DNA of 64,000 nucleotides from the IMG/VR virus record IMGVR_UViG_3300021091_000011; one strand, given 5' to 3'. The notes below the pieces were generated by a model. The model saw only the letters and a list, made by a program, of their open reading frames with translations, did not search any database and was not told the DNA's origin. This stretch comes from a virus. Lineage: Duplodnaviria; Caudoviricetes. This document shows positions 12,784 through 29,935 of this stretch, one piece after another (positions within the stretch are counted from its first letter, which is position 1; each line of letters begins with the position of its first letter). Both the position numbers and the translations under genes were made by a program.

Positions 12784-12794
12784 ATTGATTGCGC

Positions 12795-13323: not shown

Positions 13324-13325
13324 GT

Positions 13326-13980: not shown

Positions 13981-14042
13981 GCGTTAACAACGCTATCAAA
14001 GCCCATGAGCAGCAATAACCTGATTTTTACAGGCATGGGCAC

Positions 14043-14699: not shown

Positions 14700-14748
14700 G
14701 TCCTTTTACTTAGCCTATCACGCCAACCGTAGGCAGGAGACCGATTAC

Positions 14749-15126
14749 ATGAACAAGATTTCTTCGCAAGACCGAAGCGCGCTGATCAAGTTGGCATCAA
14801 GTCTGCCCGCAGGCGACGAAACCCGTCGCGCGATTCTCGCAGGCTTGACCAAACTCGCCGCCCCCTACAAGCACGACAGCACCACCAGCGGTGGTAAGCG
14901 TTGCCGCAATCAATCCTGCGGCGGCGTCGGCGCACCGGGCAAAGGTTTATCCGAGTACGACCTGCTCGCAAACTACGGCGATCACGTCGGCACCGACCAC
15001 GATCCCCAAAAGAATATGGCGGGCTATATGCGTTGGTGGCGTGAAAACCAAGGTCAACACAAAGACCGCACCGTGAGCCCCACGGGTGCAGGCAACGAGA
15101 CTTTCAATCCTCAAAAGAAGAAGTAA
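14749..15126 (+). CDS. Leader-tagged small protein
   Basis: GCAGGAG RBS; MNKISSQDRSALIKLASSLPAGDETRRAILAGLTKLAA followed by an unrelated ~90-aa domain. Confidence 0.75.
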   Translation: MNKISSQDRSALIKLASSLPAGDETRRAILAGLTKLAAPYKHDSTTSGGKRCRNQSCGGVGAPGKGLSEYDLLANYGDHVGTDHDPQKNMAGYMRWWRENQGQHKDRTVSPTGAGNETFNPQKKK

Positions 15127-15269
15127 GTAAGTCTCCCCCCCTAGCCCTTAGAAAAGCCCTCTCGCTCGCGCAAGAGGGGCTTTTTTTATGCCCAAAAAGC
15201 GTATGATCACGCTATGCCTAGCAACACCGTCAGACTGATTCTCGGCGATAGCCTTGTCAAACTCAAAGA
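15061..15269. repeat. 209/210-bp direct repeat, copy 1
   Basis: Near-identical to 16599-16808; contains the 3' end of the 14749 gene, a terminator and the first 19 codons of the methyltransferase. Confidence 0.92.
15152..15187 (+). terminator. Rho-independent terminator
   Basis: AGCCCTCT-loop-AGAGGGGCT followed by T7. Confidence 0.8.
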
Positions 15270-15303
15270 TTTCTTAATCCGGCTATACCAATCTAACGCT
15301 TAG
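15214..15303 (+). pseudogene. Truncated start of the methyltransferase N-half
   Basis: MPSNTVRLILGDSLVKLKD is identical to the 16753 protein, then diverges and stops. Confidence 0.8.
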
Positions 15304-15325
15304 ATTATCTTGAAGGTGTATAGAC

Positions 15326-16441
15326 ATGAGCATGATTTCGCGGGTTGCGCAGAGATTCTTGCAGGCAGACGCAGTCAAAATTCATTGGTGGTTTCTTGAC
15401 GCGCATGAGGACCCGACCGTCAAACGTGCCGCAGAACGGCTATGGGGTTCCGTCGGTTCCGGGCTGGCTGAGATTGCCCCCATAAATGCGAGACTGCGGG
15501 CAATGAAACCCGAGGACGCGCACACGCCCAACGGTTTTCAGACGGTGCGCGCCGACGTGAGTCTCGTTACAAGTCCGCAAGTAGAGGGCGTCGCTTTGCA
15601 CTTGGATTTTTCTTTGGACGGCCGGACGGTCCTGTTCAACTCCAAGTTGAGAGTCAATCACCCGAAGTTTGCGGCTTTGCATGGTAAGAAAGCAACGCCG
15701 GCCAAGATTCTGTCAATTCTCTTTGCGGACTTCACGCAAAAGAAAGCCGAGTCCAATGCGTTTCAAGACGAACTCGACGCGGAATATGCACGGGTTCGGG
15801 CAAACTTTCAGACGCAAGCCGAGGACTTCGCCAAGTTTCTAGCCTTCCAGATTCCCACACTTCGGTCCAACGTCCCGGCGATTACCGGGAGTGTCAAGTC
15901 CGTCACGGCTTCCGAGAATGGCTTTTCGGTCGTGTCGGAGTTCAAGACCGCCACGGGCAAGCCTTATCAGATAGGGTGTGACGTCCGAAACGGAACGTTG
16001 CAAATCACACGTTCTGACGGTAAGCCCGGGTCTAAGTTCTCGATAGACTCCGGGGACACACGTTCAGTCGGCAACGCCGTCCATCATGTTTTGAGTGTGG
16101 CCCGTGGCATTGCCAGTAGTGAGAGTCAGGCGTCGGACAAGGTGACGGCTCTGATTCAAGCCACGCGGACGGAAAAGGGCGGGCGAAACCGTAAGGTTTC
16201 GTTTATTCCTGGGAAGACCCCGCGTTGGGACGTTCGACCGGACACGCCGAAGTCTTTGGACCATTACGGTCCTGACGGTTGGGACGAAGACGCGTGGACG
16301 GAAGAATACGCGGAGCCGATTGAGACGGCGGTGCTCGCCGAGTTAGACGCCGCTTTTGGACGCGGTATGTTCCACATCGACGTAGAAGAGAACGGTGATT
16401 TCACCGTTTACGCGACTCCGGCTGGTGCCCGACTGTTCTAG
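15326..16441 (+). CDS. Hypothetical protein with an N-terminal RVAQRFLQA tag, lying between the 209-bp direct repeats
   Basis: 371-aa ORF starting MSMISRVAQRFLQAD. Confidence 0.75.
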   Translation: MSMISRVAQRFLQADAVKIHWWFLDAHEDPTVKRAAERLWGSVGSGLAEIAPINARLRAMKPEDAHTPNGFQTVRADVSLVTSPQVEGVALHLDFSLDGRTVLFNSKLRVNHPKFAALHGKKATPAKILSILFADFTQKKAESNAFQDELDAEYARVRANFQTQAEDFAKFLAFQIPTLRSNVPAITGSVKSVTASENGFSVVSEFKTATGKPYQIGCDVRNGTLQITRSDGKPGSKFSIDSGDTRSVGNAVHHVLSVARGIASSESQASDKVTALIQATRTEKGGRNRKVSFIPGKTPRWDVRPDTPKSLDHYGPDGWDEDAWTEEYAEPIETAVLAELDAAFGRGMFHIDVEENGDFTVYATPAGARLF

Positions 16442-16598
16442 TCGACGAGCTTCTTGACGAGAGCCTCGATGCGGGCCGACAAATGGGTCCGCACGATTTC
16501 GTCCGTGGCCTTACGTCCCGAATCAAGAAATCCGTCGGGAGTATTTGAGACGAATCGAACGTCTTAATAACGCTCAGGCGGCGAGCGAGGCGGTCAAA

Positions 16599-16808
16599 AA
16601 AGACCGCACCGTGAGCCCCACGGGTGCAGGCAACGAGACTTTCAATCCTCAAAAGAAGAAGTAAGTAAGTCTCCCCCCCTAGCCCTTAGAAAAGCCCCTC
16701 TCGCTCGCGCAAGAGGGGCTTTTTTTATGCCCAAAAAGCGTATGATCACGCTATGCCTAGCAACACCGTTAGACTGATTCTCGGCGATAGCCTAGTCAAA
16801 CTCAAAGA
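16599..16808. repeat. 209/210-bp direct repeat, copy 2
   Basis: Matches 15061-15269 with a few substitutions and one extra C in the terminator stem. Confidence 0.92.
16689..16726 (+). terminator. Rho-independent terminator (duplicate)
   Basis: AGCCCCTCT-loop-AGAGGGGCT followed by a T-run. Confidence 0.8.
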
Positions 16809-17406
16809 CCTAGCGCCAAACTCAGTAGACGCCGTAGTTTCAGACCCACCCTATGAATTAACCGCTAACAAAAAAGGCGGCTCAGGGGTTGCCAGCATCA
16901 ATCTTGAAAGTCCATACGGACGTTCACGGATCGGAACGGGCAACGGCGGCGGCTTTATGGGTATGAAATGGGATTCGACCGGAATCGCCTTTTCACCCGA
17001 ACTTTGGGGCGAATGCTTTAGGATTCTAAAACCTAACGGCGTTATCAAAGCCTTTTCAGGCACGAGAACTTTTCACCGAATGACCCAAGCCCTGAAAAAA
17101 TCAGGATTCGTAGACTTTGAAATTCACGCTTGGACTTACGGCTCAGGCTTCCCGAAGTCTATGGACGTGAGCAAGCAGATCGACAAGGCGGCGGGCGCGG
17201 AGCGGGAAGTGGTGGGGCGTGTGGCAGGCATGGGTAAGCAAAACCCTGAATGGAACGGCACCGCACAAGGACGCGCTGAAAACTCGTTCAAGTCGGAATA
17301 TGATGCAACCGCACCCGCCACCGATGCCGCTCGGCAATGGTCCGGGTGGGGCACCGCTCTAAAGCCCGCTTGGGAACCAATCATCGTCGCAAGAAAGCCA
17401 ATATGA
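16753..17406 (+). CDS. N4/N6 DNA methyltransferase, N-terminal part (motif IV DPPY; no SAM-binding motif I)
   Basis: LILGDS, VDAVVSDPPY, FMGMKWD, ECFRILKPNG, WTYGSGFPKS, TALKPAWEPIIVARKPI. Confidence 0.88.
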   Translation: MPSNTVRLILGDSLVKLKDLAPNSVDAVVSDPPYELTANKKGGSGVASINLESPYGRSRIGTGNGGGFMGMKWDSTGIAFSPELWGECFRILKPNGVIKAFSGTRTFHRMTQALKKSGFVDFEIHAWTYGSGFPKSMDVSKQIDKAAGAEREVVGRVAGMGKQNPEWNGTAQGRAENSFKSEYDATAPATDAARQWSGWGTALKPAWEPIIVARKPI

Positions 17407-17489
17407 TCATCCACGTCTTGAGAAAGCCGTTGTCAGACACGGTCGCTCAAAACGCCTTGGCTCATGGAGCCGGAGCAAGGTGCCATTGA
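17403..17489 (+). pseudogene. Truncated copy of the methyltransferase second part
   Basis: MIIHVLRKPLSDTVAQNALAHGAGA, then interrupted at about 17478 by the inverted endonuclease remnant. Confidence 0.8.
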
Positions 17490-18074
17490 ATTCTAAAGCC
17501 GCCCCCATTTCAGGCAGGAAATAGTCTAGTACGGTCCCATAGCGACCATTTGGCCCCCGTAGATAATACTGATGTACGCAGGGCACACCTAGACGTTGAA
17601 GCACATCACCAACTTTCATTTCTAAGCCCGAGACGCGGGGTATACGGCCTTCCGCAATCGCCAAAGAAGTTGTCTGAGATAACTTGGCCTTGGTTTCTTC
17701 CGTGTGCTGATAGTTGCCCGCCGCCTTTCGGCGAACATTCATCTCACGTCGACGTTCGGCCTGCGCTTGTCGGGTAGCCTCTGGAATGATATAGGGCGTT
17801 TCTACTTTCCGACCTACCAAGCCCATCGAGCGAGCCTGATAGGAGCATTTGCGGGAGCATAAAAACGCCGTGGTCTTCGACCGAGCCACCACCGAAGGTG
17901 GTCTGGTTACAGGAGTGCCGCAAACTCCACAAGATTTTGCGATTGAGAGGGTGTTGCTCTGCCCCACAGGGCGTGAGAGCATTTACGAGAACAAGTCGTC
18001 TGCCGCCCATGTAATAAGCGGGTAGGGTCTGCTTGGTATAGGTCCCCGCAAACGGGGCAAAGTCGTTCAATCAC
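17478..18074 (-). pseudogene. Homing endonuclease remnant (Zn fingers + NUMOD3-like + Vsr/DUF559-like domain), frameshifted and truncated
   Basis: GTG at 18074 gives IERLCPVCGDLYQADPTRLLHGRQTTCSRKCS. A different frame carries CGVCG...FLCSRKCS, HTEETKAKLS and SGLEMKV...VLDYFLPEMGAALEFNGT, cut before the expected WH. Confidence 0.75.
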
Positions 18075-18123
18075 GAGGTCACCACCTATGACAAATGAGG
18101 GAAACGGTCGTAGGGAGGGTCAG

Positions 18124-18926
18124 ATGATTCGCTTGGTTTTAGGGGACTGCATCGAGAAAATGCAGGATATCCCCCCAGGAACCATTGATGCGATCATCAG
18201 CGACCCTCCCTACGGCTGAATATATCAGGACTAGAATTCATGGGGAAAGAATGGGACGCACCTTGGAAGTCAAACGGATGGCAAGCCGGAGGCGGGTTCT
18301 CTAAACCTGGTATTGGCGAACGCCATACCGCATGGCCTAGTTTCACCGCGACTTCTAAGTTCGGTGCCACAAATCCAACTTGTGAGACTTGTGGGGGACG
18401 TGCGCGAGGTAAAAAACGCTGCGGTTGCGCTGAACCACAATGGAAAGCCATCGGCAAACGCCGCCACGTCGAAAATGAAGGCTTACCGTCTGACGTTACG
18501 AGTTCAGGGATGAGTAATCACCTTCGCCACTTTCAAGATTGGTGCGAACTTTGGTCAAGCCAATGCTTTAGAATCCTAAAACCTAACGGCGTTATCAAAG
18601 CCTTTTCGGGGACACGAACTTTTCACCGTATGACCCAAGCCCTGAAAAAATCAGGATTCGTAGACTTTGAAATTCACGCTTGGACTTACGGATCAGGCTT
18701 CCCGAAGTCTATGGACGTGAGCAAGCAGATCGACAAGCAAGCGGGCGCAGAACGAACGGAAGTCATAAAGCCGTTCAATGACGAAAACGGTTGGAACGCG
18801 AACGGAACCACGGGCGACCACGCCTATACCGCACCCGCCACCGACGCCGCCCGTCAATGGTCCGGTTACGGCACCGCTCTAAAGCCCGCTTGGGAGCCGA
18901 TCATCGTCGCAAGAAAGCCAATATGA
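18124..18926 (+). CDS. Second methyltransferase N-terminal part, interrupted by a 14-nt insert just after DPPYG
   Basis: GGAGG RBS; MIRLVLGDCIEKMQDIPPGTIDAIISDPPYG, TGA at 18217; resumes LEFMGKEWD at 18231 and continues to ...EPIIVARKPI. Confidence 0.8.
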
Positions 18927-19381
18927 TCGTTCACGTCTTACGAAAGCCATTGTCAGGCACGGTCGCTCAAAACGCTTTGGCTCATGGAGCCGGAGCATTG
19001 AACATCGACGGATGCCGGATTGCTGTTTCTAGCGAAGAAAGAAAAACCTACGACGCCAATATGCGTGCGCTTGAACGGTACGCAGACGGCAGAGAAAAAA
19101 TCGGGCAGTTTGAGGGTGGCTGGAAAGCAGACCCGTCCCGTGTCAAAAACGTGGGCGCTCGCTGGCCCGCTAATCTCGTCCATGATGGAAGCGAGCACGC
19201 CCTAGATAATTTTCCCGAGGCGGGAAATGGATGGAAGAAAAATTACGGTGATGAAGTCTATGCCGTTGAAGGCCGTCATTATTCCGGAGGTTCTTTTGGC
19301 GGTGGTGGTTTTCTAGGGGGTAGCACTTATACGGACTCAGGCTCGGCATCTCGATTCTTTCAACAAGTGATAATCAAATGA
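18923..19381 (+). CDS. Methyltransferase second part, paralog A
   Basis: MIVHVLRKPLSGTVAQNALAHGAGALNIDGCRI...RWPANLVHDGS...GSASRFFQQV; ATGA overlap with the N-half. Confidence 0.8.
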   Translation: MIVHVLRKPLSGTVAQNALAHGAGALNIDGCRIAVSSEERKTYDANMRALERYADGREKIGQFEGGWKADPSRVKNVGARWPANLVHDGSEHALDNFPEAGNGWKKNYGDEVYAVEGRHYSGGSFGGGGFLGGSTYTDSGSASRFFQQVIIK

Positions 19382-19806
19382 TCGTTCACGTCCTGAGAAA
19401 GCCATTGTCAGGCACCGTCGCTCAAAACGCCCTGCAACACGGCTGCGGGGCATTGAACATCGACGGATGCAGGGTTAGTTTGTCTTCCGATGAAAATCCA
19501 GACAAGTTGAGCGCGAGAAGCGGTGGGAACCGTGGTTTTGCTGAAGATTATGTAGGCGGGGTAACACGAAATTTACCTGCTGGTTGGGATTGCAGCAAGG
19601 GGCGTTGGCCCGCGAATCTCGTCCATGATGGAAGCGACGAAGTTGTAGAGACGTTTCCTGAGAGCAACCGCTGGTTCAACGCACCGAGAAATAGCGATGG
19701 AAAAGGCAAAGACGGCCAGATTTTTGATACTCACCGTGGCAGCGGGATGGGTGGCGGCGACTCCGGTTCGGCATCTCGATTCTTTCAGCAAGTAACCCTC
19801 AAATAG
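19378..19806 (+). CDS. Methyltransferase second part, paralog B
   Basis: Same conserved blocks as paralog A with different variable segments; ATGA overlap. Confidence 0.8.
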   Translation: MIVHVLRKPLSGTVAQNALQHGCGALNIDGCRVSLSSDENPDKLSARSGGNRGFAEDYVGGVTRNLPAGWDCSKGRWPANLVHDGSDEVVETFPESNRWFNAPRNSDGKGKDGQIFDTHRGSGMGGGDSGSASRFFQQVTLK

Positions 19807-20111
19807 CAAACCCCCAAAAAGCCCCCCTTACTAATAACCCCCTCGCCCACAGACGAAACCTTACTAGACTAGATGCGATAGGCGTGCGTGGGTGGGGCTA
19901 GTGTTTAGGCATTAGCAAACCAATTCCAAGCCGTCCGTTTTTCAATGCGGTTTCAATATGGCTTTCGGGGTGGGTCCCGAGGCTTCGAAAGGTTTTACGC
20001 GCGGTTCTGGACACTCGTGTTTAGACCTCGACCAGACCGCGAAGTTGAAAAATCAGGTAGGGTTGCGATGAAACATTCGTTGCGGCGCTAGGGGATTTCA
20101 GCGGTCGTGGT

Positions 20112-20630
20112 ATGATAGTGGTTATGAAGAAGAATCCTTTGATAGCCGCGAAGATTAAGTCTTTGGTGGGTGTGTTGAAGGGTGTGGGCGACAAGGCTAC
20201 GCGCGTGGCTTGTCTGCTTGGCGTGTTGTTGGGGGAGACGAGCGCGGAGGGTTTAGTCTCTTTGCGTGGTGAGGCTTCCCTTCTTCGCATACGTCGGGTG
20301 TATGGGAAGGTCTATGGTGCGGAGTTGGCCGACCATTTGGGTCGGTTGCTTCCGGAGGGCGACGTCCCTTGTCTATTGGGGCGTGGCGGCAAGGCGTTAT
20401 CCCGAGTGACGTTGTGGCGTCGCGTGGGGAAGATCGGCTTGGTGGGTCTGCGTCGTTTATCGTTGGCGTTTCGCAAGTTCTTTATGGAGCATTGCGAGAC
20501 GCGGGAAGAGGCGCGGGATTGTGCGTCGGGGACGGGCTTTGTGTTGGGCACGCCGACGTCTTGGGTTCGTGTGTACGCTTGGTGGCCTGACGCACCGGAT
20601 TGGTGTGGGCGGGTGAGGCGCTTTATATAA
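20112..20630 (+). CDS. Hypothetical protein (possible HTH)
   Basis: 172-aa ORF in G/T-rich sequence; LSRVTLWRRVGKIG is HTH-like. Confidence 0.45.
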   Translation: MIVVMKKNPLIAAKIKSLVGVLKGVGDKATRVACLLGVLLGETSAEGLVSLRGEASLLRIRRVYGKVYGAELADHLGRLLPEGDVPCLLGRGGKALSRVTLWRRVGKIGLVGLRRLSLAFRKFFMEHCETREEARDCASGTGFVLGTPTSWVRVYAWWPDAPDWCGRVRRFI

Positions 20631-20674
20631 GCGTGTTTGCGTCGTCGAAGCCGCTTGGAATGGGTGAGGGAGAT

Positions 20675-20953
20675 TCACGGGGCTTTGCTTCCGTGGCCGT
20701 AACCCTGACCGTGACCGCTGCCGTAACTGCCACCGTAGCCGTAACCGTGGCCGCTTCCGTCGCTGAAGCAGTCACCGTAGGCGCTTCTGTGCCAACGAGA
20801 ACGCTGCGGCGGCGGCGGCGACAACTCAAAGGCCGTGGTCAGCGGGACTTGAGCGAGTGCCTTACCCTTGGCGTCAATCAGACTAATCGAGCCGTCGAGA
20901 TTAGGCTTGACGTCAGACGCCGCTTGAAACGGTGGTGGGAGGCTTTTGATCAT
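20675..20953 (-). CDS. LPxPF-domain paralog with a Gly/Tyr-rich tail
   Basis: SLPPPFQAASDVKPNLDGSISLIDAKGKALAQVPLTTAFEL plus GSGHGYGYGG. Confidence 0.8.
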   Translation of the reverse strand: MIKSLPPPFQAASDVKPNLDGSISLIDAKGKALAQVPLTTAFELSPPPPQRSRWHRSAYGDCFSDGSGHGYGYGGSYGSGHGQGYGHGSKAP

Positions 20954-21348
20954 CTATATACGCCGTCGATTGAGGCTATTCCCCCATGGGTTTGGATCAG
21001 TTGTCTGAGGATTTCATGCGGCACATAGGCGTAGACGGTGTCCGTCGGGTCGTCTGAGTTTTCAGCGTAGGTTTGGATCAAGTCGTCAGGTTGATTGGGG
21101 AAGCCTAACTCATAATGAGTCCACGGCCCATGGTCCTTGCGGGGTCGGCAGTAGTGCGTTGCGCTGGCCCTTACGGAGACGGAGAACCCATCTTTGCAAG
21201 TGACCCGACCTTGATATAGGCCCAAATCTAAGGCCGTGTGCAGCGCAACTTGAGCGAGCGTCTTACCCTTGGCGTCGATCAGATCGAGTGAGCCCTGAGC
21301 GTTAGGCTTGATGCTCGTCGCGTCTTGAAACGGTGGGGGCAGTTTCAC
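20950..21348 (-). CDS. LPxPF-domain paralog fused to a different globular phage domain
   Basis: MKLPPPFQDATSIKPN...ALDL plus CKDGFSVSVRASATHYCRPR...ELGFP...YAE...PTDTVYAYVP. Confidence 0.8.
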   Translation of the reverse strand: MKLPPPFQDATSIKPNAQGSLDLIDAKGKTLAQVALHTALDLGLYQGRVTCKDGFSVSVRASATHYCRPRKDHGPWTHYELGFPNQPDDLIQTYAENSDDPTDTVYAYVPHEILRQLIQTHGGIASIDGVYR

Positions 21349-21575
21349 GGGCTTCTCCCACCGTCACCTTCGGACTGCTCATCACCGTAACCGCGTCCGT
21401 CACCGTAGCCACGTCCGTCACCGTAACCGTGGCCGTAGTCTTTTGTGCTCAACTCAAAGGCCGTGGTCAACGGGATTCGCGCCAACGGCTTGCCCTTGGC
21501 ATCGGTCAGGCTGATCGTCCCGTCGGGATTAGGCTTGAGGTTAGTCGCGGACTGAAACGGATGTGGTAGGTTCAT
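21345..21575 (-). CDS. LPxPF-domain paralog with a Gly-rich tail
   Basis: MNLPHPFQSATNLKPNPDG...TAFEL plus (GYGDGR)n. Confidence 0.8.
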   Translation of the reverse strand: MNLPHPFQSATNLKPNPDGTISLTDAKGKPLARIPLTTAFELSTKDYGHGYGDGRGYGDGRGYGDEQSEGDGGRSP

Positions 21576-21925
21576 TTGGGAACCTTGCCTCCGGAGCCGT
21601 TGCCGATTCCAAATGGGTCGTATCCGGCACCTGAGTTGCCATCAGCGAAGCGGCATTTAGCACCTAAAGCGTCGCTGTAGCCGTAGTTCAGCGAAGCGAA
21701 CAAAATGCCGCCGCCGAAAGGCATGATTTCAGATATGTTGGTCTTGTCGAGTAGCGAGTAGGCCGTGTTCAACGGCACGCGGGCAATCGGGAGGTCATTT
21801 TCGGTGGTCAGGTCGATTGTCCCATCGGCGTTTACGCGAATCCAGCGCACGTCTTGAAACGGACGTGGCAACGGCGACCGACTATGTGCAGGGTAGTGGA
21901 CGTTGTCTGAGATGTAACCGTTCAT
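21572..21925 (-). CDS. Divergent LPxPF-domain paralog
   Basis: SPLPRPFQDVRWIRVNADGTIDLTTENDLPIARVPLNTAYSL. Confidence 0.75.
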   Translation of the reverse strand: MNGYISDNVHYPAHSRSPLPRPFQDVRWIRVNADGTIDLTTENDLPIARVPLNTAYSLLDKTNISEIMPFGGGILFASLNYGYSDALGAKCRFADGNSGAGYDPFGIGNGSGGKVPK

Positions 21926-22248
21926 GGGGACTTGCCTTTGCCGCTTATGTAGCCTTGGCCGTAAGCGACTCCGATTCCGAATCCTTCGCCGTAGCCGATT
22001 CCGAATCCATCACCCGAACCGTCTCCGTGATCTTTGCCGTAAGTGCCGTAACCGAAATCTCCATCGCCGCTGCCATCGTTGCTTGGCTTGAAGTCGCACT
22101 CATCCTTGTCACCGAGCGGCGACAACTCAAAAGCCGTGGGCATCGAGATTCTTGCGAGCGGCTTCCCGCTCGCGTCGATTAGGTCGATTGAGCCGTCGAG
22201 ATTAGGTTTGAGACCCGTCGCGGACTGAAACGGTGGGGGCAGTTTCAC
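21922..22248 (-). CDS. LPxPF-domain paralog with a Gly/Asp-rich tail
   Basis: MKLPPPFQSATGLKPNLDG...TAFEL plus GSGDGDFGYG repeats. Confidence 0.8.
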   Translation of the reverse strand: MKLPPPFQSATGLKPNLDGSIDLIDASGKPLARISMPTAFELSPLGDKDECDFKPSNDGSGDGDFGYGTYGKDHGDGSGDGFGIGYGEGFGIGVAYGQGYISGKGKSP

Positions 22249-22604
22249 GGGCTTCTCCCATTAGCCCTATGGGAACGCTTGCCGTAACCGTCACCGTCAC
22301 CGTGACCGTCACCGTAACAACCGATACCGCGACCGTGACCGTCACCGCGACCGTTGCCGCGACCGTCACCGTAACAACCGTAGCCGTAACCGTCACCGTA
22401 GCCGAGGCCGTAACCGTCGCTGTAGCCGAGGCCGTAACCGTGACCGTCACCGGAACCGTAGCCTGCGGCCTCGGGACTTAGATCAAAAGCCGTGGTCAAC
22501 GGGATTCGCGCCAACGGCTTGCCCTTGGCATCGGTCAGGCTAACCGTCCCGTCGGCATTGGGCTTGATGCTAGATGCGTCTTGGAACGGATGGGGCAGTT
22601 TCAC
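22245..22604 (-). CDS. LPxPF-domain paralog with a long GYGDG tail
   Basis: GTG start at 22604 after AGGAG: MKLPHPFQDASSIKPNADG...TAFDL plus (GYG/GDG)n. Confidence 0.8.
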   Translation of the reverse strand: MKLPHPFQDASSIKPNADGTVSLTDAKGKPLARIPLTTAFDLSPEAAGYGSGDGHGYGLGYSDGYGLGYGDGYGYGCYGDGRGNGRGDGHGRGIGCYGDGHGDGDGYGKRSHRANGRSP

Positions 22605-22621
22605 GGAGTTCAGTCTCCTGA

Positions 22622-23098
22622 TCAATCATCAATGTCTTCGGAGATGTCGAATGCCTCGATGATCTCGTCAGGCAGGTCTCCGTGTGAGGTCACGGTATAC
22701 TGTTGGTCCTCGCCGTGCCCAAAGATTCCGGCGAAAGCCATGCCAGGTTCATAGTAGAGCCCTCTGACGTCGAAACCGAGCTTGATTAGGTGTTGGTAGA
22801 ACGCGATTGGGGGCGACCAGGCCGTGAAAAACTTAGCCGTAATCTCTCCGTGGACGGAGGCAGTCACGGAACCCTCATCTATGTCCCATTTCGTGCCCCA
22901 ATTGTCACAGCACCAATCATAACTGTCCCTAGCACCGTACTTAGCGAGGTTTTGCTCGGCAGACTGACCCTCCAATTCAGGGGGGCATGGCAGGAACTCG
23001 TGGAACAGTTCGTTGCGACTTAGGGCTTTCTCGGCGCGGGTTAGTTCGTCCACGGACTCGTGCTTCAGCGTCAGGTGGTTCATACACCAATTGGGCAT
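22622..23098 (-). CDS. DUF1281/YubB ferredoxin-like phage protein
   Basis: MPNWCMNHL...YDWCCDNWGTKWD...FFTAWSPP...YYEPGMAFAG. Confidence 0.8.
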   Translation of the reverse strand: MPNWCMNHLTLKHESVDELTRAEKALSRNELFHEFLPCPPELEGQSAEQNLAKYGARDSYDWCCDNWGTKWDIDEGSVTASVHGEITAKFFTAWSPPIAFYQHLIKLGFDVRGLYYEPGMAFAGIFGHGEDQQYTVTSHGDLPDEIIEAFDISEDIDD

Positions 23099-23149
23099 GG
23101 TCTAACTCTTCTTTCTATGGGCTGATCTTGGTTGTCACAAACACTCGGG

Positions 23150-23587
23150 CTATCTGTCGAGGCCAGGTTCGAGTGGGGCAAATTCACGTTCTCCCCCCAC
23201 CGTCAACGTCACCGTAACCGACACCGGAACCACCGGAACCACCGTGACAGTCGCCGTAACCGTCGCCCTTCTCCCACCGTCACCGTTGGGCAGCCCGTCA
23301 CCGTAACAACCGTAGCCGTAACCGTCACCGTAGCCGAGGCCGTAACCGTAGCCGTAGCTGTCGCTGTAACCGTCGCCGTCGCCGTCGCCGGAACCGTCGC
23401 CGCAACCGTAGTCGGAACCGTAGCCGTAACCGTAGCCTGCGGCCTCGGGACTTAGCTCAAAGGCCGTGGTCAACGGGATTCGCGCCAACGGCTTGCCCTT
23501 GGCATCGGTCAGGCTAACCGTCCCGTCGGCATCGGGCTTGAGGCCCGTCGCCGCTCGAAACGGATGAGGGAGGTTTAGGCGTCCCAC
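23150..23587 (-). CDS. LPxPF-domain paralog whose 3' end is a frameshifted fusion
   Basis: LNLPHPFRAATGLKPDADG...TAFEL plus a GYG tail; after GDGGR the frame reads Val/Thr while the Gly-rich reading continues in another frame. Confidence 0.65.
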   Translation of the reverse strand: MGRLNLPHPFRAATGLKPDADGTVSLTDAKGKPLARIPLTTAFELSPEAAGYGYGYGSDYGCGDGSGDGDGDGYSDSYGYGYGLGYGDGYGYGCYGDGLPNGDGGRRATVTATVTVVPVVPVSVTVTLTVGGEREFAPLEPGLDR

Positions 23588-23907
23588 AAGCCGGACTCCC
23601 ACGCCGCCGCCGCTTGAGGCGTGCAAGCCAGCAGCCCCGTTATGTCCGTGTATTGCGCCATAGGCGCGGGAGGCGAAATCCTCGACCCCTGCAAAGGCCC
23701 CGTGTACGCAAGGCCGACGAACCCCCGCACTTCGGCGGGCCAATAGACCACCACTCTGCAGTCCTTGAGCGTGATGGTCGACGGGTTCTTGGTCGTGGTC
23801 CCGTCCGGACTCACGACCTCAGTAGCGAGGTTGTACGAGACAACCTCACCGAAGAAAACGCCGCGATGGGCGGTCGTGACGACGACCTTCTGACCGACAA
23901 AGTTCAT
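23575..23907 (-). CDS. DUF6948-like protein
   Basis: GQKVVVTTAHRGVFFG...ITLKDCRVVVYW...GFVGLAYTGP...SRIS...LLACTPQAAAAW. Confidence 0.7.
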   Translation of the reverse strand: MNFVGQKVVVTTAHRGVFFGEVVSYNLATEVVSPDGTTTKNPSTITLKDCRVVVYWPAEVRGFVGLAYTGPLQGSRISPPAPMAQYTDITGLLACTPQAAAAWESGLWDA

Positions 23908-23928
23908 TTGCTACTCCTGCTACGAATT

Positions 23929-24159
23929 TCAAGTTCCTTCGACGTAACCTTGCTTGGTCAGGTCATCGATCCAAGCGCCGAAAATCGCGCGAGTGACCGA
24001 ACCGTAAAGCGGCTGACCATCCGACCAGCCTGCGGCCTCGACCGTGTGGTTCTCACCTGCGACGGGCATCACCACGCCTCGCCATGACTTTCGATACTCG
24101 CAAGTCACGAGAACGGCCAAGACCTTCCCATGAAGTGCGATATGTGCGACGTGCTTCAT
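23929..24159 (-). CDS. Hypothetical protein
   Basis: GGAG RBS; first gene after motif copy 5. Confidence 0.65.
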   Translation of the reverse strand: MKHVAHIALHGKVLAVLVTCEYRKSWRGVVMPVAGENHTVEAAGWSDGQPLYGSVTRAIFGAWIDDLTKQGYVEGT

Positions 24160-24184
24160 TAGTTTGACTCCTTAATTTCACCGC

Positions 24185-24230
24185 TCACACTATTCAAACG
24201 GTCGGGCATCGCAGCGAAAACCGAAAATCG
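24185..24230 (-). promoter_or_regulatory. Bipartite motif, copy 5 (variant GAATAGTGTG)
   Basis: CACACTATTCAAACGG-N14-GAAAACCGAAAATCG on the + strand. Confidence 0.7.
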
Positions 24231-24422
24231 TCAACAGCACTCCAAACATTCGTCGTTTTCGTGCTCGGTGCGTCGTCCGCATTCATAGCAGTAGGCGTAG
24301 TAGTAGCCCTCGTCGTTCGCACCACGGTCGCTTTCTTCGATGGGGACCGTCTCCCAAGCGTAGACGCGCTCATTTGACTTGGTGCCAGCGTAGGGATCAC
24401 AAGGCTTAGTGCGTGTGGACAT
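24231..24422 (-). CDS. Small Cys-rich protein
   Basis: MSTRTKPCDP...YCYECGRRTEHENDECLECC. Confidence 0.6.
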   Translation of the reverse strand: MSTRTKPCDPYAGTKSNERVYAWETVPIEESDRGANDEGYYYAYCYECGRRTEHENDECLECC

Positions 24423-24442
24423 CTTTGATTTCCTCTGTGTGT

Positions 24443-25111
24443 TTAGCAGCAGGACTCGTGGTAGCAACCGGAAGCCTTGCCCGGCGGGTCGTAGACCATA
24501 TCGCTCCCGCTATGGATAGGCTCATGGCATCCGGCGCAAATCACGTCGAACGGCGCACGCACCGTCGGCAACAGCACCCGCTCAGGCTTCAACGGCTCAG
24601 GCTCAGGCTTCGACACACCCGCATTCGGCGACCATCGCGCCGCCATGTTCTGAAGCTCGGCAAGCGCGGCGTTCCGGCACTCGTGTCGCAAAGGGCATCC
24701 GTCGCACGTCTTGGCCTTGTGTGACCACCCGCCGAAACACGGCGTCATGTTCATCGCCACCCGCGCGAAGTACGCATCGCCGCCGTAACCCTCGCCCTCG
24801 CCCAAAGCGCGAGCCTCGGGCAAAAGGGGCAAGACCGTCCGCGTCGGCTCCACCACCACCGCTGGCGCGGGCTCCGCGATCACTTCGGCCTGCTTCTCAG
24901 CGGCGTCGCCGTTCAGGACCTCGTACCTCGTCCGCGCATTACGCCCCCGATCAGGGAACGTCACCGCGCCCGCGTTCTTAAGATCGTTCAGCGCCGACTT
25001 GAGCGTTGGCTCGTCCATCGGGACGGCGAGATTCGCCACGATCTCGTCCCAAGAGCAATAACCCGAACCGTTTGCCGCACACGCGGCTTTGATTGCATTG
25101 ACAATGTTCAT
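24443..25111 (-). CDS. Hypothetical protein: wHTH-like N-terminus and two Cys clusters
   Basis: LKSALNDLKNAGAV; CFGGW...TCDGCPLRHEC; CAGCHEPI...CYHESCC. Confidence 0.7.
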   Translation of the reverse strand: MNIVNAIKAACAANGSGYCSWDEIVANLAVPMDEPTLKSALNDLKNAGAVTFPDRGRNARTRYEVLNGDAAEKQAEVIAEPAPAVVVEPTRTVLPLLPEARALGEGEGYGGDAYFARVAMNMTPCFGGWSHKAKTCDGCPLRHECRNAALAELQNMAARWSPNAGVSKPEPEPLKPERVLLPTVRAPFDVICAGCHEPIHSGSDMVYDPPGKASGCYHESCC

Positions 25112-25132
25112 GTTGCACTCCCTTTTTGATTG

Positions 25133-25172
25133 CTTACACCATCCAAACGGTCAGTCAGCCCCGAAAAAACCG
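25133..25172 (-). promoter_or_regulatory. Bipartite motif, copy 6
   Basis: CTTACACCATCCAAACGG-N14-AAAAACCGA on the + strand (distal half partly degenerate). Confidence 0.65.
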
Positions 25173-25176
25173 ATTT

Positions 25177-25449
25177 TCAGGACTGAAAGTTCGTCGGAGC
25201 CTGCCGCCCCAAGCCCAAATCGACCTCACGCGGGTCGTCCAGCGTCGGACAGCCGTTCAGGAACGACCGATAACGGTCGCATTGGTACGCGACTCGTCCG
25301 GGCGTGTTGCAGATCTCCACCTTGCGCCACGTCTTGAGCGGCGCACCGCGAAAGGCCGAAGCCTCGAACGTCTCGACCGTCTTCGCAGTCGAGTAGTCCG
25401 CAGCCTCCGGCGCTCCGGTGAAAACCACAACCGTCACGAAACTCTCCAT
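25177..25449 (-). CDS. Hypothetical protein
   Basis: CAGGAG RBS; MESFVTVVVFTG... Confidence 0.65.
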   Translation of the reverse strand: MESFVTVVVFTGAPEAADYSTAKTVETFEASAFRGAPLKTWRKVEICNTPGRVAYQCDRYRSFLNGCPTLDDPREVDLGLGRQAPTNFQS

Positions 25450-25467
25450 GCTCACGCTCCTGAAAGT

Positions 25468-25588
25468 AGGGTCAAACAGATTGTGCGCTTTTAGGCCCCG
25501 TAGGAAGTCTCGGGTAGCCTCACCGAAACCGACTGACAAGCCCGAAGGCCCGCTCCTACGCGGCTAGAAACGCACAATCTGTCAAAGA
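25468..25588 (-). ncRNA. Putative structured RNA, copy 1 (unknown family)
   Basis: Terminal arms ACAGATTGTGCGCTTTTAG / CTAGAAACGCACAATCTGT; inner stem CGTAGGA/TCCTACG; UUCG-capped hairpin on the minus strand. Confidence 0.5.
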
Positions 25589-25590
25589 TG

Positions 25591-25712
25591 AGGGTCAAAC
25601 AGATTGTGCGCTTTTAGGCCCTAAAGGAAAGTCTCGGGTAGCCTCACCGAAACCGACTGACAAGCCCGAAGGCCCGCTCCTATACGGCTAGAAACGCACA
25701 ATCTGTCAAAGA
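25591..25712 (-). ncRNA. Putative structured RNA, copy 2
   Basis: Tandem near-copy with compensatory changes in the inner stem (TAAAGGA/TCCTATA); begins just downstream of motif copy 7. Confidence 0.5.
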
Positions 25713-25720
25713 AACCGTCG

Positions 25721-25766
25721 CTTACACCATCCAAACGGTTTCGAACCGTCAGGAAAACCGAAAATC
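25721..25766 (-). promoter_or_regulatory. Bipartite motif, copy 7
   Basis: CTTACACCATCCAAACGG-N14-GAAAACCGAAAATC on the + strand. Confidence 0.75.
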
Positions 25767-26196
25767 AACCGCGACCATCGCAAATCGGCCCAAGCCCCGA
25801 CTCAAGCGACTCCGGATGCGTGAGCTTCCGGCCACACTTGCCACACTTGCCGTCGTGCCACACTTCAAGGCCCTCGGGGATCGTCCCCGCCGCGATGCGC
25901 TCCCACGCCCAAGCGAAAGCCTTGTGACTCGGAGCGTCCGCACCGATCTTCGACTTCGCCGTGCGAATGAACCCACCGTTGGCCCCGATCAGGCCCATGT
26001 ACGCATAGGACGCCTCGTTGTCAGGACCGTTCAGGACCTTGACGAACCGAACCTTGCCGCCGTCCTTCGGCTCCTGCACCTTGAAGGTGAAGTGACGGCC
26101 CGTGGCCGTGCTCTTGAAAGTCACCGTGGCGTTGCCGCCAAGGATGAAAGCAGCGGCGTGGTCGGCGTTCTGGATCGGGCGGGCGTTCGCGTTCAT
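25765..26196 (-). CDS. DUF6011-like protein
   Basis: ATG at 26196 after GGAG: FILGGNATVTFKS..TGRHFTFKV...FVKVLNGPDNE...WHDGKCGKCGRKLTHPESLESGLGPIC. Confidence 0.8.
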   Translation of the reverse strand: MNANARPIQNADHAAAFILGGNATVTFKSTATGRHFTFKVQEPKDGGKVRFVKVLNGPDNEASYAYMGLIGANGGFIRTAKSKIGADAPSHKAFAWAWERIAAGTIPEGLEVWHDGKCGKCGRKLTHPESLESGLGPICDGRG

Positions 26197-26227
26197 GTTC
26201 GGTGCTCCTAGTTTGCTTGGTTCGTCG

Positions 26228-26327
26228 CTTACACCATCCAAACGGTCGCAGGACGCCCGAAAAACCGAAAAAGTGACGTCGATTTTCGGTTTTCTTAGCC
26301 CGAAGCAACCGTTTGGATGGTGTAAGC
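26228..26327. promoter_or_regulatory. Back-to-back divergent pair of the bipartite motif (copies 8 and 9)
   Basis: CTTACACCATCCAAACGG-N14-AAAAACCGAAAAAGTGACGTCGATTTTCGGTTTTC-N14-CCGTTTGGATGGTGTAAG. Confidence 0.75.
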
Positions 26328-26356
26328 GCAAGAAACCACTTTCTAGGGAGCCTTCG

Positions 26357-26494
26357 ATGAAGTTCCGCGACAACAAGATTGCCACCGCCCGCACCGAGGC
26401 GGGAATCGTGCGATCCAAGGCGGCTCGCAAGGCCGCGATCCGCGCGGTACGCCGCGCACGCATCCTCTTCATCGAGGATAGCGCGAAGAACTGA
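26357..26494 (+). CDS. 45-aa basic peptide, copy 1
   Basis: GGGAG RBS; MKFRDNKIATARTEAGIVRSKAARKAAIRAVRRARILFIEDSAKN. Confidence 0.7.
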   Translation: MKFRDNKIATARTEAGIVRSKAARKAAIRAVRRARILFIEDSAKN

Positions 26495-26495
26495 T

Positions 26496-26542
26496 GATTT
26501 TCGGTTTTCCAAGCGGCCCCGAACCGTTTGGATGGTGTAAGC
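26496..26542 (+). promoter_or_regulatory. Bipartite motif, copy 10
   Basis: GATTTTCGGTTTTC-N14-CCGTTTGGATGGTGTAAG. Confidence 0.75.
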
Positions 26543-26571
26543 GCAAGAAACCACTTTATAGGAGACTTTCG

Positions 26572-26709
26572 ATGAAGTTCCGCGACAACAAGATTGCCAC
26601 CGCCCGCACCGAGGCGGGAATCGTGCGGTCCAAGGCGGCTCGCAAGGCCGCGATCCGCGCGGTACGCCGCGCACGCAGCCTCTTCATCGAGGATAGCGCG
26701 AAGAACTGA
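26572..26709 (+). CDS. 45-aa basic peptide, copy 2
   Basis: AGGAG RBS; identical to copy 1 except one I-to-S change. Confidence 0.7.
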   Translation: MKFRDNKIATARTEAGIVRSKAARKAAIRAVRRARSLFIEDSAKN

Positions 26710-26755
26710 GATTTTCGGTTTTCCAAGCGGCCCCGAACCGTTTGGATGGTGTAAC
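26710..26755 (+). promoter_or_regulatory. Bipartite motif, copy 11
   Basis: GATTTTCGGTTTTC-N14-CCGTTTGGATGGTGTAAC. Confidence 0.75.
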
Positions 26756-26784
26756 CACAACTTGAAACCTTGCAGGAGTAGAAC

Positions 26785-27153
26785 ATGAAATTCGTCAACC
26801 TCACGCCCCACGATATCGTGCTCGCGTCCGGCGAGAACAACGCCAAGCGCATGACGATCCCCGCGAGCGGGATCGTCGCGCGAGTCTCAAGCACGCCCGG
26901 CGCGGCTGAGACAATCGACGGCGTGCCCGTCCCCGTGATGGGCCGTCAAACTTGGGGCAGCGTCGAAGGTCTCCCCGACCCCGTGCCCAACACACTCTAC
27001 ATCGTCAGCGGGGTCGTTCTCGCTCGACCCGAGTGCCAAAGCCGTATGGACGTCGTTGGCCCGGGCACCGGACCCAACGACAACGCCATTCGATACACCG
27101 ACGGTCCCCGAAAGGGGCAGGTCGAAGCGGTCACCCGACTCGTTCGCGGTTGA
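26785..27153 (+). CDS. Conserved hypothetical phage protein (NLTPH family)
   Basis: MKFVNLTPHDI...SGIVARV...VEGLPDP...LYIVS...R.DVVGP. Confidence 0.75.
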   Translation: MKFVNLTPHDIVLASGENNAKRMTIPASGIVARVSSTPGAAETIDGVPVPVMGRQTWGSVEGLPDPVPNTLYIVSGVVLARPECQSRMDVVGPGTGPNDNAIRYTDGPRKGQVEAVTRLVRG

Positions 27154-27200
27154 CGATTTTCGGTTTTCCAAGCGGCCCCAAACCGTTTGGATGGTGTAAC
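27154..27200 (+). promoter_or_regulatory. Bipartite motif, copy 12
   Basis: GATTTTCGGTTTTC-N14-CCGTTTGGATGGTGTAAC. Confidence 0.75.
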
Positions 27201-27230
27201 CCTAACTTGAAACATTCCTTGCAGGAGTAG

Positions 27231-28313
27231 ATGAACATGAACGCGATCCCCAACGAAGTGCTCGAAGCGTGGCAGAACCGCCCGATCAAGACCCGCCGCC
27301 CCGCCCCCCGACTCGTCGATCTCACCGTTGAGATTGGCGACGTCGAAGTGCCCGTCGATACGGGCATCACGGCGAGCGATTGCTTGCCTATGCCCGAAGG
27401 CTACAAGTTCCCCACTAAGGGTGCGGCCAAGAAGTGTACCGAGCGCGCAATCCACGCGCTCGTGAAGGGCCGAAACGCCTTCATTCACGGGATGCCGGGC
27501 ACGGGCAAGGACGCAATCGTCCACGCCTTCAGCGCCATGACCCGCAAGCCCGTGCTCATGGTCACTTTCCGGCCCGGGACCGATCTCGCACCTTGGTTCT
27601 ATATGCGGTCATACACGGCGGGCGAAACCGGATGGCGCTACGGCGCACTCTGGAACGCACTCACCGAGGGCGTTATGGGCACCGACGGTAAGCCCCGCGC
27701 ACCGCTGATCCTGCTCTCCGACGTTGACCGCGCCGATAGCGCGCAAGCAGAGTGGTTCCGAATCTTGACGGACAGCATTTCGGGCCGGATTCTCGGACCC
27801 GATGGACGCATGGTGCCGATCTTCCCCGGTACGCAGTTTGTCTGCACCGCCAACTCCTGCGGCACGGGCGATAGCCGTGGCCGCATGACCAGCGCAAACC
27901 CCATCGACGCCTCCATCATGGACCGCTTGGGCCGCGCAATCGAGTTCACCTACCTGCATTGGGACGACGAGGTTCAGGTCCTCCGCGAGAAGTTCCCGCT
28001 TCTCGTCGAAAAGGCCCCCGACGTGTTCACGCAGTTGCAGGGGTGCTGCGAGGCACTTCGCAAGGCAATCAAGAACGAGGAAATCTACGGCGAGTTCACG
28101 CACCGTGGCATCTGCGACGTGCTGGCCGAAGCCCAAGACCGACTCGAAATTACGGGCAAGAGCGACAAACTGCTTCAAACAGGCTTCATGGCTTGGCTCC
28201 ACCGACTCGACGCCGATAACCGACTCGCCGCAAAGCGACTCATCGACCCCTTTATGAAGGGTGGCGCAATCGCCGACGACATTGGTGAGGCCGAATCCAC
28301 CGAATCCCCCTAA
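27231..28313 (+). CDS. MoxR/CobS-like AAA+ ATPase
   Basis: Walker A GMPGTGKD; Walker B-like ILLSDVDR; VCTANSCG; DASIMDRL. Confidence 0.85.
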   Translation: MNMNAIPNEVLEAWQNRPIKTRRPAPRLVDLTVEIGDVEVPVDTGITASDCLPMPEGYKFPTKGAAKKCTERAIHALVKGRNAFIHGMPGTGKDAIVHAFSAMTRKPVLMVTFRPGTDLAPWFYMRSYTAGETGWRYGALWNALTEGVMGTDGKPRAPLILLSDVDRADSAQAEWFRILTDSISGRILGPDGRMVPIFPGTQFVCTANSCGTGDSRGRMTSANPIDASIMDRLGRAIEFTYLHWDDEVQVLREKFPLLVEKAPDVFTQLQGCCEALRKAIKNEEIYGEFTHRGICDVLAEAQDRLEITGKSDKLLQTGFMAWLHRLDADNRLAAKRLIDPFMKGGAIADDIGEAESTESP

Positions 28314-28320
28314 AAAGCGC

Positions 28321-28368
28321 CGATTTTCGGTTTTCCTAGACCGAACCAACCGTCTGAATAGTGTAAGC
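28321..28368 (+). promoter_or_regulatory. Bipartite motif, copy 13 (variant CCGTCTGAATAGTGTAAG)
   Basis: GATTTTCGGTTTTC-N14-CCGTCTGAATAGTGTAAG. Confidence 0.7.
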
Positions 28369-29377: not shown

Positions 29378-29935
29378 ATGAGCCTTAGTATCTCACTTAA
29401 CTCTAGTGCTGCGAAGTCCGGTATCTCTGGACCGCTTTGGTTTGCGTTTAGTCGAGAATTCGGCTTGGCTTTGGCTTCATGGTTGAACGCGAGTGCCTAC
29501 GGCTATTCGCCTCTTGGTATTGCGCCTCCGGCTCCGTCTCCGATTTCAGTAACGGGCTCGGGTCGATTGCAGACGTTTCGTGTGAGGTCACCTTCTGGCG
29601 TCAGTTCGGGACCTTTGGGCGTGAACACGGAGCGTGCGATTCTGGATGCGTTGGTTTTCGTGCCAATGGTTTTGAAGCCTCTAGGTTCTGGTTCGGGCTC
29701 TGGTGTGAGTCCTATATTGCCTTCGGGTAGTTTCCGTTCGAGTCTTGGTCCGTTGGGTGGTTATCTGGTCGCGCGTGTGGGGACGTTATCTGGTCCTGTT
29801 GGCAAGTCTTGGCTTTTGGATTTCGGTACTCGTCTGGAATCAGGTATGTCGTTTGTGGGTACTGCGACGGTGATTTCTCAAGTGCCTGTCCCCGTCCCCG
29901 TGATCGTATCTGTGGGGGTGATATGTCCTTTGTGA
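29378..29935 (+). CDS. Hypothetical (probably structural) protein
   Basis: 185-aa Gly/Ser/Pro-rich ORF heading the structural operon. Confidence 0.55.
   Translation: MSLSISLNSSAAKSGISGPLWFAFSREFGLALASWLNASAYGYSPLGIAPPAPSPISVTGSGRLQTFRVRSPSGVSSGPLGVNTERAILDALVFVPMVLKPLGSGSGSGVSPILPSGSFRSSLGPLGGYLVARVGTLSGPVGKSWLLDFGTRLESGMSFVGTATVISQVPVPVPVIVSVGVICPL

Follow-up and report, generated by a model that had tools for sequence, protein, structure and literature searches.

A chained array of Gly-Tyr-tailed paralogues with a shared head domain accompanies DUF6948 in a clade of giant freshwater phages

Introduction

Low-complexity sequences rich in glycine and tyrosine are known from the [G/S]Y[G/S] domains of FUS/hnRNP-type proteins and from structural proteins such as the keratin-associated and sulphur-globule proteins. 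Disordered Gly-rich or acidic tails are also found on Sm/Hfq proteins, as in the C-terminal domains of Hfq and the Gly-Arg tails of SmD1/D3. In phage T4, a 10-residue capsid-targeting sequence (CTS) suffices for the packaging of the internal proteins (IPs) and is cleaved by the prohead protease, and the set of IPs varies between relatives (PMC9026906). Here we describe a locus in a 64-kb stretch of DNA, hereafter the window, from the IMG/VR virus record IMGVR_UViG_3300021091_000011 (Duplodnaviria; Caudoviricetes), in which seven paralogous genes lie downstream of a gene of the DUF6948 family, each of them encoding the same N-terminal domain (the head) followed by one of several types of tail, mostly rich in Gly and Tyr.

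The tails are like FUS-type domains in their Gly (about 40%) and Tyr/Phe/His (about 20%) content, in their GYG, GSG and GDG units and in having no predicted fold, but they are short (27-98 aa), strongly acidic (Asp) and placed on a folded head, and what is shared is composition without homology; their Pfam matches to Gly/Tyr-rich structural proteins are weak and of the composition type. As in Sm/Hfq proteins, a small barrel-type protein, for which DUF6948 is the candidate, comes with a disordered Gly-rich and partly acidic element, although here the barrel candidate and the tails are separate polypeptides. Like T4 IPI, IPII and IPIII, the array consists of small genes side by side, with one N-terminal module placed before unrelated cargo that evolves fast, and the set of genes varies among relatives. 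It differs from the T4 CTS in that its module is a folded domain of 42 aa without sequence similarity to the CTS.

In other phages, uncultivated ones of ~40-100 kb (IMG/VR loci L008-L086), DUF6948 forms what we call the canonical pair with a Gly-Tyr repeat protein, and in both settings DUF6948 lies directly upstream on the same strand, in an early or accessory context, and the partner is acidic, of hypervariable length and built of (Gly-X)n with Tyr, Asp and Ser. The canonical pair usually has a single partner gene, with a short N-terminal segment and often a C-terminal domain of ~110 aa, whereas the window has a folded 42-aa head and no such C-terminal domain, and its clade has 7-17 coupled copies. 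Judged by sequence, the locus is an expanded and altered version of this widespread two-gene module. The reading that we favour, and to which we give about an even chance, is that the array is a lineage-specific expansion of the Gly-Tyr half of the module, in which the head would dock or assemble and the tails would be disordered.

Results

Seven paralogues with one head domain lie downstream of DUF6948

All features of the array are on the minus strand. A promoter-like motif is followed by a 76-aa open reading frame (ORF), the DUF6948 gene, copy 1, an Api92-like gene and copies 2-7, the paralogues being numbered in the order of transcription, from 23587 down to 20675. Coordinates, strand and description are as follows, HMM standing for hidden Markov model, AF2 for AlphaFold2 and pLDDT for its per-residue confidence measure:

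~24183-24229, minus: bipartite promoter-like motif variant, TTTTCGGTTTT-N17-CCGTTTGAATAGTGTGAGC (repeat family D9 and sequence read)
23929-24159, minus: 76-aa ORF, first gene of the operon, with AAGGAG and ATG; without Pfam family
23575-23907, minus: DUF6948 gene, 110 aa (PF22253, E 1e-16; 84 homologue clusters)
23150-23587, minus: copy 1, head and Gly/Tyr tail; GTG start at 23587, 13-nt overlap with the DUF6948 stop
23150-23187, minus: relic head start (GTGA junction, MNLPH, then unrelated sequence; repeat family D18), ending before the Api92-like gene
22622-23098, minus: Api92/DUF1281-like gene inside the array, 158 aa (phrog_20518, E 2.7e-13; DUF1281_C weak)
22245-22604, minus: copy 2, head and 73-aa Gly/Tyr/Asp/Arg tail, 119 aa (cluster P0002)
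21922-22248, minus: copy 3, head and acidic Gly/Asp/Tyr/Phe tail (ORF call)
21572-21925, minus: copy 4, divergent member (orthologues P0034 and P0038)
21345-21575, minus: copy 5, head and 30-aa GYGDGRG tail, 76 aa (ORF call)
20950-21348, minus: copy 6, head fused to an 86-aa globular domain (domain AF2 pLDDT 95)
20675-20953, minus: copy 7, head and Gly/Ser/Tyr/His tail, 92 aa (ORF call)
20649-20678, minus: eighth-copy stub, GTGA overlap and first 10 head codons (head HMM)

The original prediction, made from the sequence, had described seven paralogues with a common N-terminal domain, most of them chained by GTGA or ATGA overlaps, downstream of a DUF6948-like gene, and this description holds. 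An HMM of the head finds exactly seven full copies and one 10-codon stub in the window, and four-base overlaps join all consecutive pairs from copy 2 to copy 7, with GTGA between copies 2 and 3, copies 5 and 6, and copy 7 and the stub, and ATGA between copies 3 and 4, 4 and 5, and 6 and 7. The tails fall into the predicted classes, five being of the Gly/Tyr/Asp type, one divergent (copy 4) and one a globular fusion (copy 6). The identical 35-bp junction that had been noticed is also present, at 21326-21360 and 22226-22260 (0 expected by chance); within it are GGGAGAAG, which is the Shine-Dalgarno sequence, the four bases of the GTGA overlap and the opening codons of the head. Since the junction spans the Shine-Dalgarno sequence, the recurring C-termini of the tails (GGRSP in the window and GSGRSK in relatives) are dual-coded with the ribosome-binding site of the next cistron. 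The four-base overlaps suggest that most copies are translationally coupled and, with coupled translation, the copies should be made together and in similar amounts.

The start of copy 1, the embedded Api92-like gene and two truncated head relics (at 23187 and 20678) go beyond what had been described. Copy 1 has CTA where the other copies use ATG or GTG; an in-frame GTG at 23587 comes 8 nt after GGGAG, and the last ~40 codons are a Val/Thr-rich, out-of-frame reading of Gly-Tyr repeat DNA. Production of copy 1 by frameshifting from DUF6948 was considered and rejected, the in-frame GTG with its Shine-Dalgarno sequence being the simpler solution. Copy 2 most likely starts at the GTG at 22604, 17 nt past the stop of the Api92-like gene. 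Copy 4 has an 18-aa N-terminal extension, a divergent head and a Gly-rich, semi-hydrophobic tail, and its orthologues come first in the arrays of relatives. The eighth-copy stub continues as unrelated sequence into the 3′ end of a convergent ORF. As to the Api92-like gene, whose product starts with MPNWC, a counterpart lies inside the array of a distant relative (contig L005, 9250-9777), where its stop overlaps the start of the next head, and the gene is apparently conserved in the operon, as a passenger or as a member.

The head is a folded protein domain restricted to one clade

The head comprises 42-45 aa at the N-terminus of each paralogue, with the consensus LPxPF...DG..L.D..GK.LA..PL.TAF.L, and the alignment of the seven heads shows invariant P6, F7, G19, T38, A39 and L42. 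Over 41 head codons, the copies are 49-89% identical in pairwise nucleotide comparisons, with a pairwise ratio of nonsynonymous to synonymous change (dN/dS) of 0.15-0.65 and a dS that is often above 0.5. With dN/dS well below 1 despite near-saturated synonymous change, the head is a protein domain and more than a DNA repeat, and this codon comparison shows the copies to be genuine protein-coding genes on which purifying selection acts.

An AF2 model of the head, built with 44 family members in the alignment, has a pLDDT of 80-92 over residues 1-44 and predicts an extended N-terminal LPxPF segment, three strands in a beta meander (10-15, 20-25 and 30-35) and a short helix (36-41). The constant domain is not a known stand-alone family, in keeping with the original prediction: no Pfam or PHROG family covers it, and a Foldseek search of the model, proposed at the time as a check, gave no match in the PDB at E <= 0.001. 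The best Z was 3.7 in VIA-align, the template modelling score (TM) in the Atlas structure search was at most 0.42, and the head profile gave just weak designed-propeller and trefoil matches against the sequences of solved structures. Profile-profile comparison showed the head to be unrelated to DUF6948.

The head family is rare, with only 20 clusters in a set of 5.8e9 proteins. In a search of 1.84 billion representatives, its profile finds ~50 small proteins of 42-157 aa; the head always comes first, with a Gly/Tyr tail or the globular domain behind it, and was never found without a tail. No cultured phage was matched by tblastn, whether the query was the head, the DUF6948 of the window or another DUF6948 (P0141), and viral contigs searched with an alignment of the full-length paralogues yielded no relative. 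Of 80 DUF6948 loci from small phages, just one, L007, is matched by the head HMM; it is the locus closest to the giant-phage clade. By these searches, the head is restricted to one clade of giant phages.

Large propeller proteins of the NHL, SGL and WD40 kinds are matched by the head profile as well, weakly but at many of their blades. Individual blades align over head positions ~7-45 (as F..A..V....DG.I.L.D..G..L.RI.L), with 21 matching stretches in P0035 and 8 each in P0053 and P0059, and the length of the head is that of one blade (~42 aa). The heads could thus be single blade-like units, with co-translated paralogues, whose co-assembly would be favoured by translational coupling, forming a ring that displays mixed tails. 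We hold this to be quite unlikely, as the per-blade scores are weak (<= 15.6 bits), the Pfam NHL and WD40 models give no match, each chain has one unit, the AF2 monomer has three strands and a helix and not the four strands of a blade, the fold searches gave nothing above Z 3.7, and a copy number of 7 to 17 suits no fixed ring size. We read the propeller matches as a resemblance of the head to one blade, not as membership. An elaboration of the ring, in which mixed rings with combinatorial acidic Gly-Tyr tails and occasional globular cargo, together with the DUF6948 barrel, would nucleate a phage-specific condensate or mimic nucleic acid early in infection, with recombination of the heads re-dealing the tails, seems to us similarly improbable.

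A Gly-Tyr repeat protein follows DUF6948 in unrelated phages

The 80 small-phage loci were gathered from IMG/VR by means of a DUF6948 alignment; they are mostly contigs of ~10-70 kb (range 2.6-105 kb), and their DUF6948 proteins are 37-62% identical to that of the window. A Gly/Tyr-rich ORF directly follows DUF6948 in 76 of the 80, and 75 pass a stricter rule, that is, a (Gly-X) run of at least 6 units with Tyr or Phe on the same strand, with a median of 45 nt from the DUF6948 match to the start of the repeat. Of the five loci that fail this rule, four are contigs ending 26-256 nt past DUF6948; in addition, many of the 80 contigs break off within the repeat, probably as an artefact of assembly. 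The statement in the original prediction that DUF6948 genes are often followed by a Gly-Tyr repeat ORF is thereby borne out, and the counts show a strong evolutionary link between the two genes.

In the canonical partner, a short N-terminal segment of the form h-R-G-x-x-P-x-W/F precedes the repeats, and at least 31 loci add a conserved C-terminal domain of ~110 aa without Pfam or PHROG family (motifs AFWRS, GPL.LC, LHATL and WWVVAL; examples at L034 3219-3770 and L036 3240-3746). HMM and tblastn searches found this domain neither in the window nor in the related contigs L001-L006, and it is unrelated to the 86-aa domain of copy 6. The head, in turn, is absent from 79 of the 80 canonical loci. 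In the small phages, the neighbours of the pair include MT-A70, a 5-hmdU DNA kinase, a CI-like repressor and a DnaJ-domain protein, and the surroundings of the pair, there as in the window, suggest early or accessory territory. No usable match was obtained for DUF6948 among named clusters in an ESM Atlas feature search, and literature searches found no paper mentioning DUF6948 and nothing relevant on Gly/Tyr-rich phage proteins or Sm-like partners.

The tails vary in sequence and keep their composition

The survey of the tails covered the window and five related loci, 66 copies in all. Most (46/66) are of the Gly/Tyr type, five are globular fusions, and among the other 15 is the divergent member, which is conserved and has a semi-hydrophobic, Gly-rich tail. 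The medians for the 46 Gly/Tyr tails are 55 aa, 41% Gly, 19% Tyr/Phe/Trp/His, 13% Asp+Glu and a net charge of -4; in the five Gly/Tyr tails of the window, Gly makes up 28-41% and Tyr 8-14%. The density of G-x-G is 0.2-0.45, and the tails are of low complexity in all copies. In 46 of the 66 copies, it is the Gly/Tyr frame that continues the frame of the head, the stops coincide with the next start, and composition is retained while sequence changes. A [G/S]Y[G/S]-rich, acidic composition of this kind is typical of disordered, self-associating sequences, which the tails may accordingly be.

Wrong-frame tails, rich in Val/Thr or Arg/Leu, were seen at L001 10132-10428 (P0021), L004 9239-9787 and window 23150-23280, and in L004 two copies are fused through a wrong-frame stretch. 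One frame-switched form is so frequent that it makes up a protein cluster by itself; tails of this sort may thus last for a while.

A constant N-terminal part followed by a hypervariable C-terminal part, in tandem copies of 76-126 aa, is formally also the layout of precursors of ribosomally synthesised and post-translationally modified peptides (RiPPs) or microcins, and Gly-rich antimicrobial peptides and microcins exist. On this view, the head would serve as leader and the Gly/Tyr part as core, with the genes multiplied as they are in prochlorosin-type arrays. We regard this as very unlikely. No family of modifying enzymes, proteases or exporters was found within ~8 kb of the array in the window and four relatives, the neighbours being DUF6948, DUF6011, AAA_5, VWA, methylase pieces, the Api92-like gene and unknowns. 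The supposed leader is predicted to be a folded domain, lacks a double-glycine-type end and is also fused to the 86-aa globular domain, and canonical DUF6948 partners carry the folded domain of ~110 aa behind their repeats.

The head also carries an unrelated globular domain

The 86-aa domain of copy 6 (window 20950-21210) is predicted with a pLDDT of 95, and other phage contigs encode homologues of it, 90-134 aa long, as proteins on their own (P0212-P0237). Its structural neighbours in the Atlas are unnamed viral clusters only (TM 0.90-0.92); Foldseek gave no match, and in VIA the best Z was 3.8, where the top rows included cysteine-peptidase-like domains, some of them C39-like, at a strength far too low to use. 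Since the same head carries a phage domain that otherwise stands alone, the head is a portable module for unrelated cargo. The family of the 86-aa domain is sizeable, with two near-invariant Cys and one His, and its conserved features are C.DGF, S.QAS, HYC.PR, ELGFP, YAE, TDTVY.YVP and HGG.

A portable module of this kind could be an addressing domain or prodomain, comparable to the T4 capsid-targeting sequence, that loads variable cargo into the procapsid or another phage assembly; the head might then be clipped off and the cargo delivered with the DNA against host defences. The shared N-terminal module on unrelated cargo in a fast-evolving tandem locus does parallel T4 IPI/II/III, the conserved acidic linker between head and tail, commonly ELSPEAEG (ELSPE(A/V)EG), could be a processing site, and the window encodes giant proteins of 3281 and 1769 aa, which are typical of the virion or ejection proteins of large phages. 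However, the Glu at the boundary is not invariant (DFAPKCDG, SLSKGESG and NIAAAAAG forms exist), and the head, at 42 aa, is a folded unit larger than a short peptide. The operon's neighbours are methylase and accessory genes, whose promoter motif it has, and not recognisable head genes; the canonical pairs of small phages adjoin repressor and DNA-modification genes. On balance, we judge an addressing function unlikely.

Copy number and head-tail combinations change between relatives

The clade consists of freshwater phages of roughly 200-250 kb with 7-17 head copies. A comparison of copy number in relatives had been proposed with the original prediction, and the lake-metagenome contigs hold 11 (L002), 13 (L004) and 17 (L001) chained copies; L005, a distant contig of 250 kb, has 15-16 copies. 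The neighbourhood AAA_5 / DUF6011 / DUF6948 / array / VWA / giant protein is conserved, even in L005, and in L001 and L003 an inversion puts the array behind the AAA_5 gene, ~4 kb away from DUF6948. In a tree of the heads, all L005 copies but one form a single supported clade and the copies of L001, L002 and L004 group together, the window copies having no resolved position. This tree is compatible with lineage-specific expansion or homogenisation.

Head/tail mosaicism is directly seen between close relatives, which sustains the predicted picture of an expanded family with a constant folded domain and exchangeable tails. The tails of L001 7636-7938 and L002 10279-10581 are 100% identical in nucleotide sequence while their heads are 83.7% identical, and for L002 11877-12176 and L004 10944-11243 the values are 100% and 86.7%. 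The Gly-Tyr runs are encoded by a 6/12-nt repeat, and near-identical genomes differ in them by one unit at a time; in one case, a frameshifted tail has joined two copies into a single gene. The mosaic identities, the unit differences and the fusion suggest that recombination in head and junction DNA, together with slippage in the tail repeats, drives the family. In three lake-water DNA runs, contigs carry the array unchanged, with breaks only at the repeats, which is uninformative on expression; no RNA dataset carrying the array is listed among the public runs.

Such turnover might mean that the repeats matter chiefly as DNA, as a recombination-prone or selfish array with the ORFs as by-products. 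The 6/12-nt tail repeat is open in several frames and on both strands, and stubs, frameshifted tails and changes in copy number speak of rapid turnover. Nevertheless, we consider this extremely unlikely: selection on the heads is evident from their dN/dS, the Gly/Tyr frame is kept in phase with the head up to a stop on the next start with its composition maintained, and a like ORF follows DUF6948 in 75-76 of 80 unrelated phages.

A phage promoter-like motif precedes the operon

A bipartite motif, in its general form TTTTCGGTTTT-N17-CCGT(T/C)TG(G/A)AT(G/A)GTGTAA and, as a class, also written TTTTCGGTTTT-N17-CCGTTTGGATGGTGTAA, has 10 exact copies in the window (0 expected by chance), all of them between 12.7 and 28.4 kb (12795-28366). 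Each copy precedes a gene of matching strand, and the motif is confined to the accessory region of the window. It is presumably one temporal promoter class of the phage. A search of the window found no exact copy from 24.2 kb to the end of the array; looser variants lie at ~24183-24229 and ~25126-25181, and the former is the sole such motif between the array and its upstream genes. This variant probably acts as a promoter from which the copies would be transcribed together with DUF6948. A scan for sigma-70 promoters and terminators gave no signal above chance. The 76-aa ORF keeps its pairing with DUF6948 in relatives.

Further features surround the array, whose neighbours in the window are methyltransferase pieces, DUF6011 and AAA_5. 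A non-coding element of ~110 nt lies just past the 3′ end of every array, in convergent orientation:

Window 19915-20035, plus: ~110-nt element
L001 ~11590-11715, minus: ~110-nt element
L002 ~12715-12840, minus: ~110-nt element
L005 ~10135-10265, minus: ~110-nt element

The element is near-invariant even in the distant 250-kb relative and appears as a spurious ORF starting with MRFQYGF. RNAalifold gives three hairpins with hardly any covariation, there is no Rfam match for the element or for window 19500-25900 as a whole, and the element is distinct from the tandem RNA at 25468-25712.

In all relatives, a MoxR-type AAA_5 ATPase and a VWA protein of ~730-760 aa flank the DUF6011/DUF6948/array region and adjoin a giant protein of 3258-3281 aa. 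The flanking genes (AAA_5, VWA and giant protein) are at:

Window 27231-28313, plus
Window 29809-39654, plus
L001 15919-17424
L005 13737-16010

Discussion

In one clade, the repeat protein of the DUF6948 module has a new folded head of 42-45 aa, and its gene has multiplied to 7-17 copies. In the reading that we favour, the copies would be co-transcribed with DUF6948 from a single phage promoter motif and mostly coupled in translation. Copies would arise, die and exchange parts through recombination in head and junction DNA and through slippage of the 6/12-nt repeat. The head would be a common docking or self-assembly unit, and the tails would be disordered, acidic, tyrosine-rich multivalent elements with a FUS-LC-like [G/S]Y[G/S] composition. 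They may act early in infection, jointly with the small DUF6948 protein, as a scaffold or condensate, as a sponge or as a mimic, possibly of nucleic acid, and further cargo such as the 86-aa domain could hang on the same head. The original prediction had likewise proposed, reasonably but as a hypothesis, that the proteins would be adaptors or decoys, with a constant domain that would dock on a common partner and tails that could phase-separate or polymerise.

Several observations weigh against this proposal. Canonical partners have no head, so the link between Gly-Tyr repeats and DUF6948 elsewhere needs none, and the inversion in L001 and L003, which separates the array from DUF6948, means that strict adjacency of the two is not required. 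The one indication that DUF6948 is Sm-like is a weak Pfam match to LSM12_LSM (E 0.033), and its profile gave no match against the sequences of solved structures. Our analyses gave no convincing prediction of a binding partner, an oligomeric state, disorder or phase behaviour, and the early timing is deduced from the gene neighbours and the shared promoter motif. A predicted complex of DUF6948 and the head scored 0.00 in a run without controls, which counts neither way.

DUF6948 and its Gly-Tyr repeat protein are among the most regular gene pairs met in uncultivated phages, and the giant-phage clade makes them easier to study. Its small, confidently predicted head can be used for expression, for crystallisation and as bait, and the clade offers a natural series of 7-17 tails on one head together with natural head/tail chimeras. 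If the tails are indeed functional disordered elements, the array would be a clear example, from a bacterial virus, of an evolving low-complexity protein family, and would show how coupled translation, together with homology at the junctions, can give rise to such a family. A head that proved to be a targeting domain would, by contrast, represent a new cargo-loading signal in large phages.

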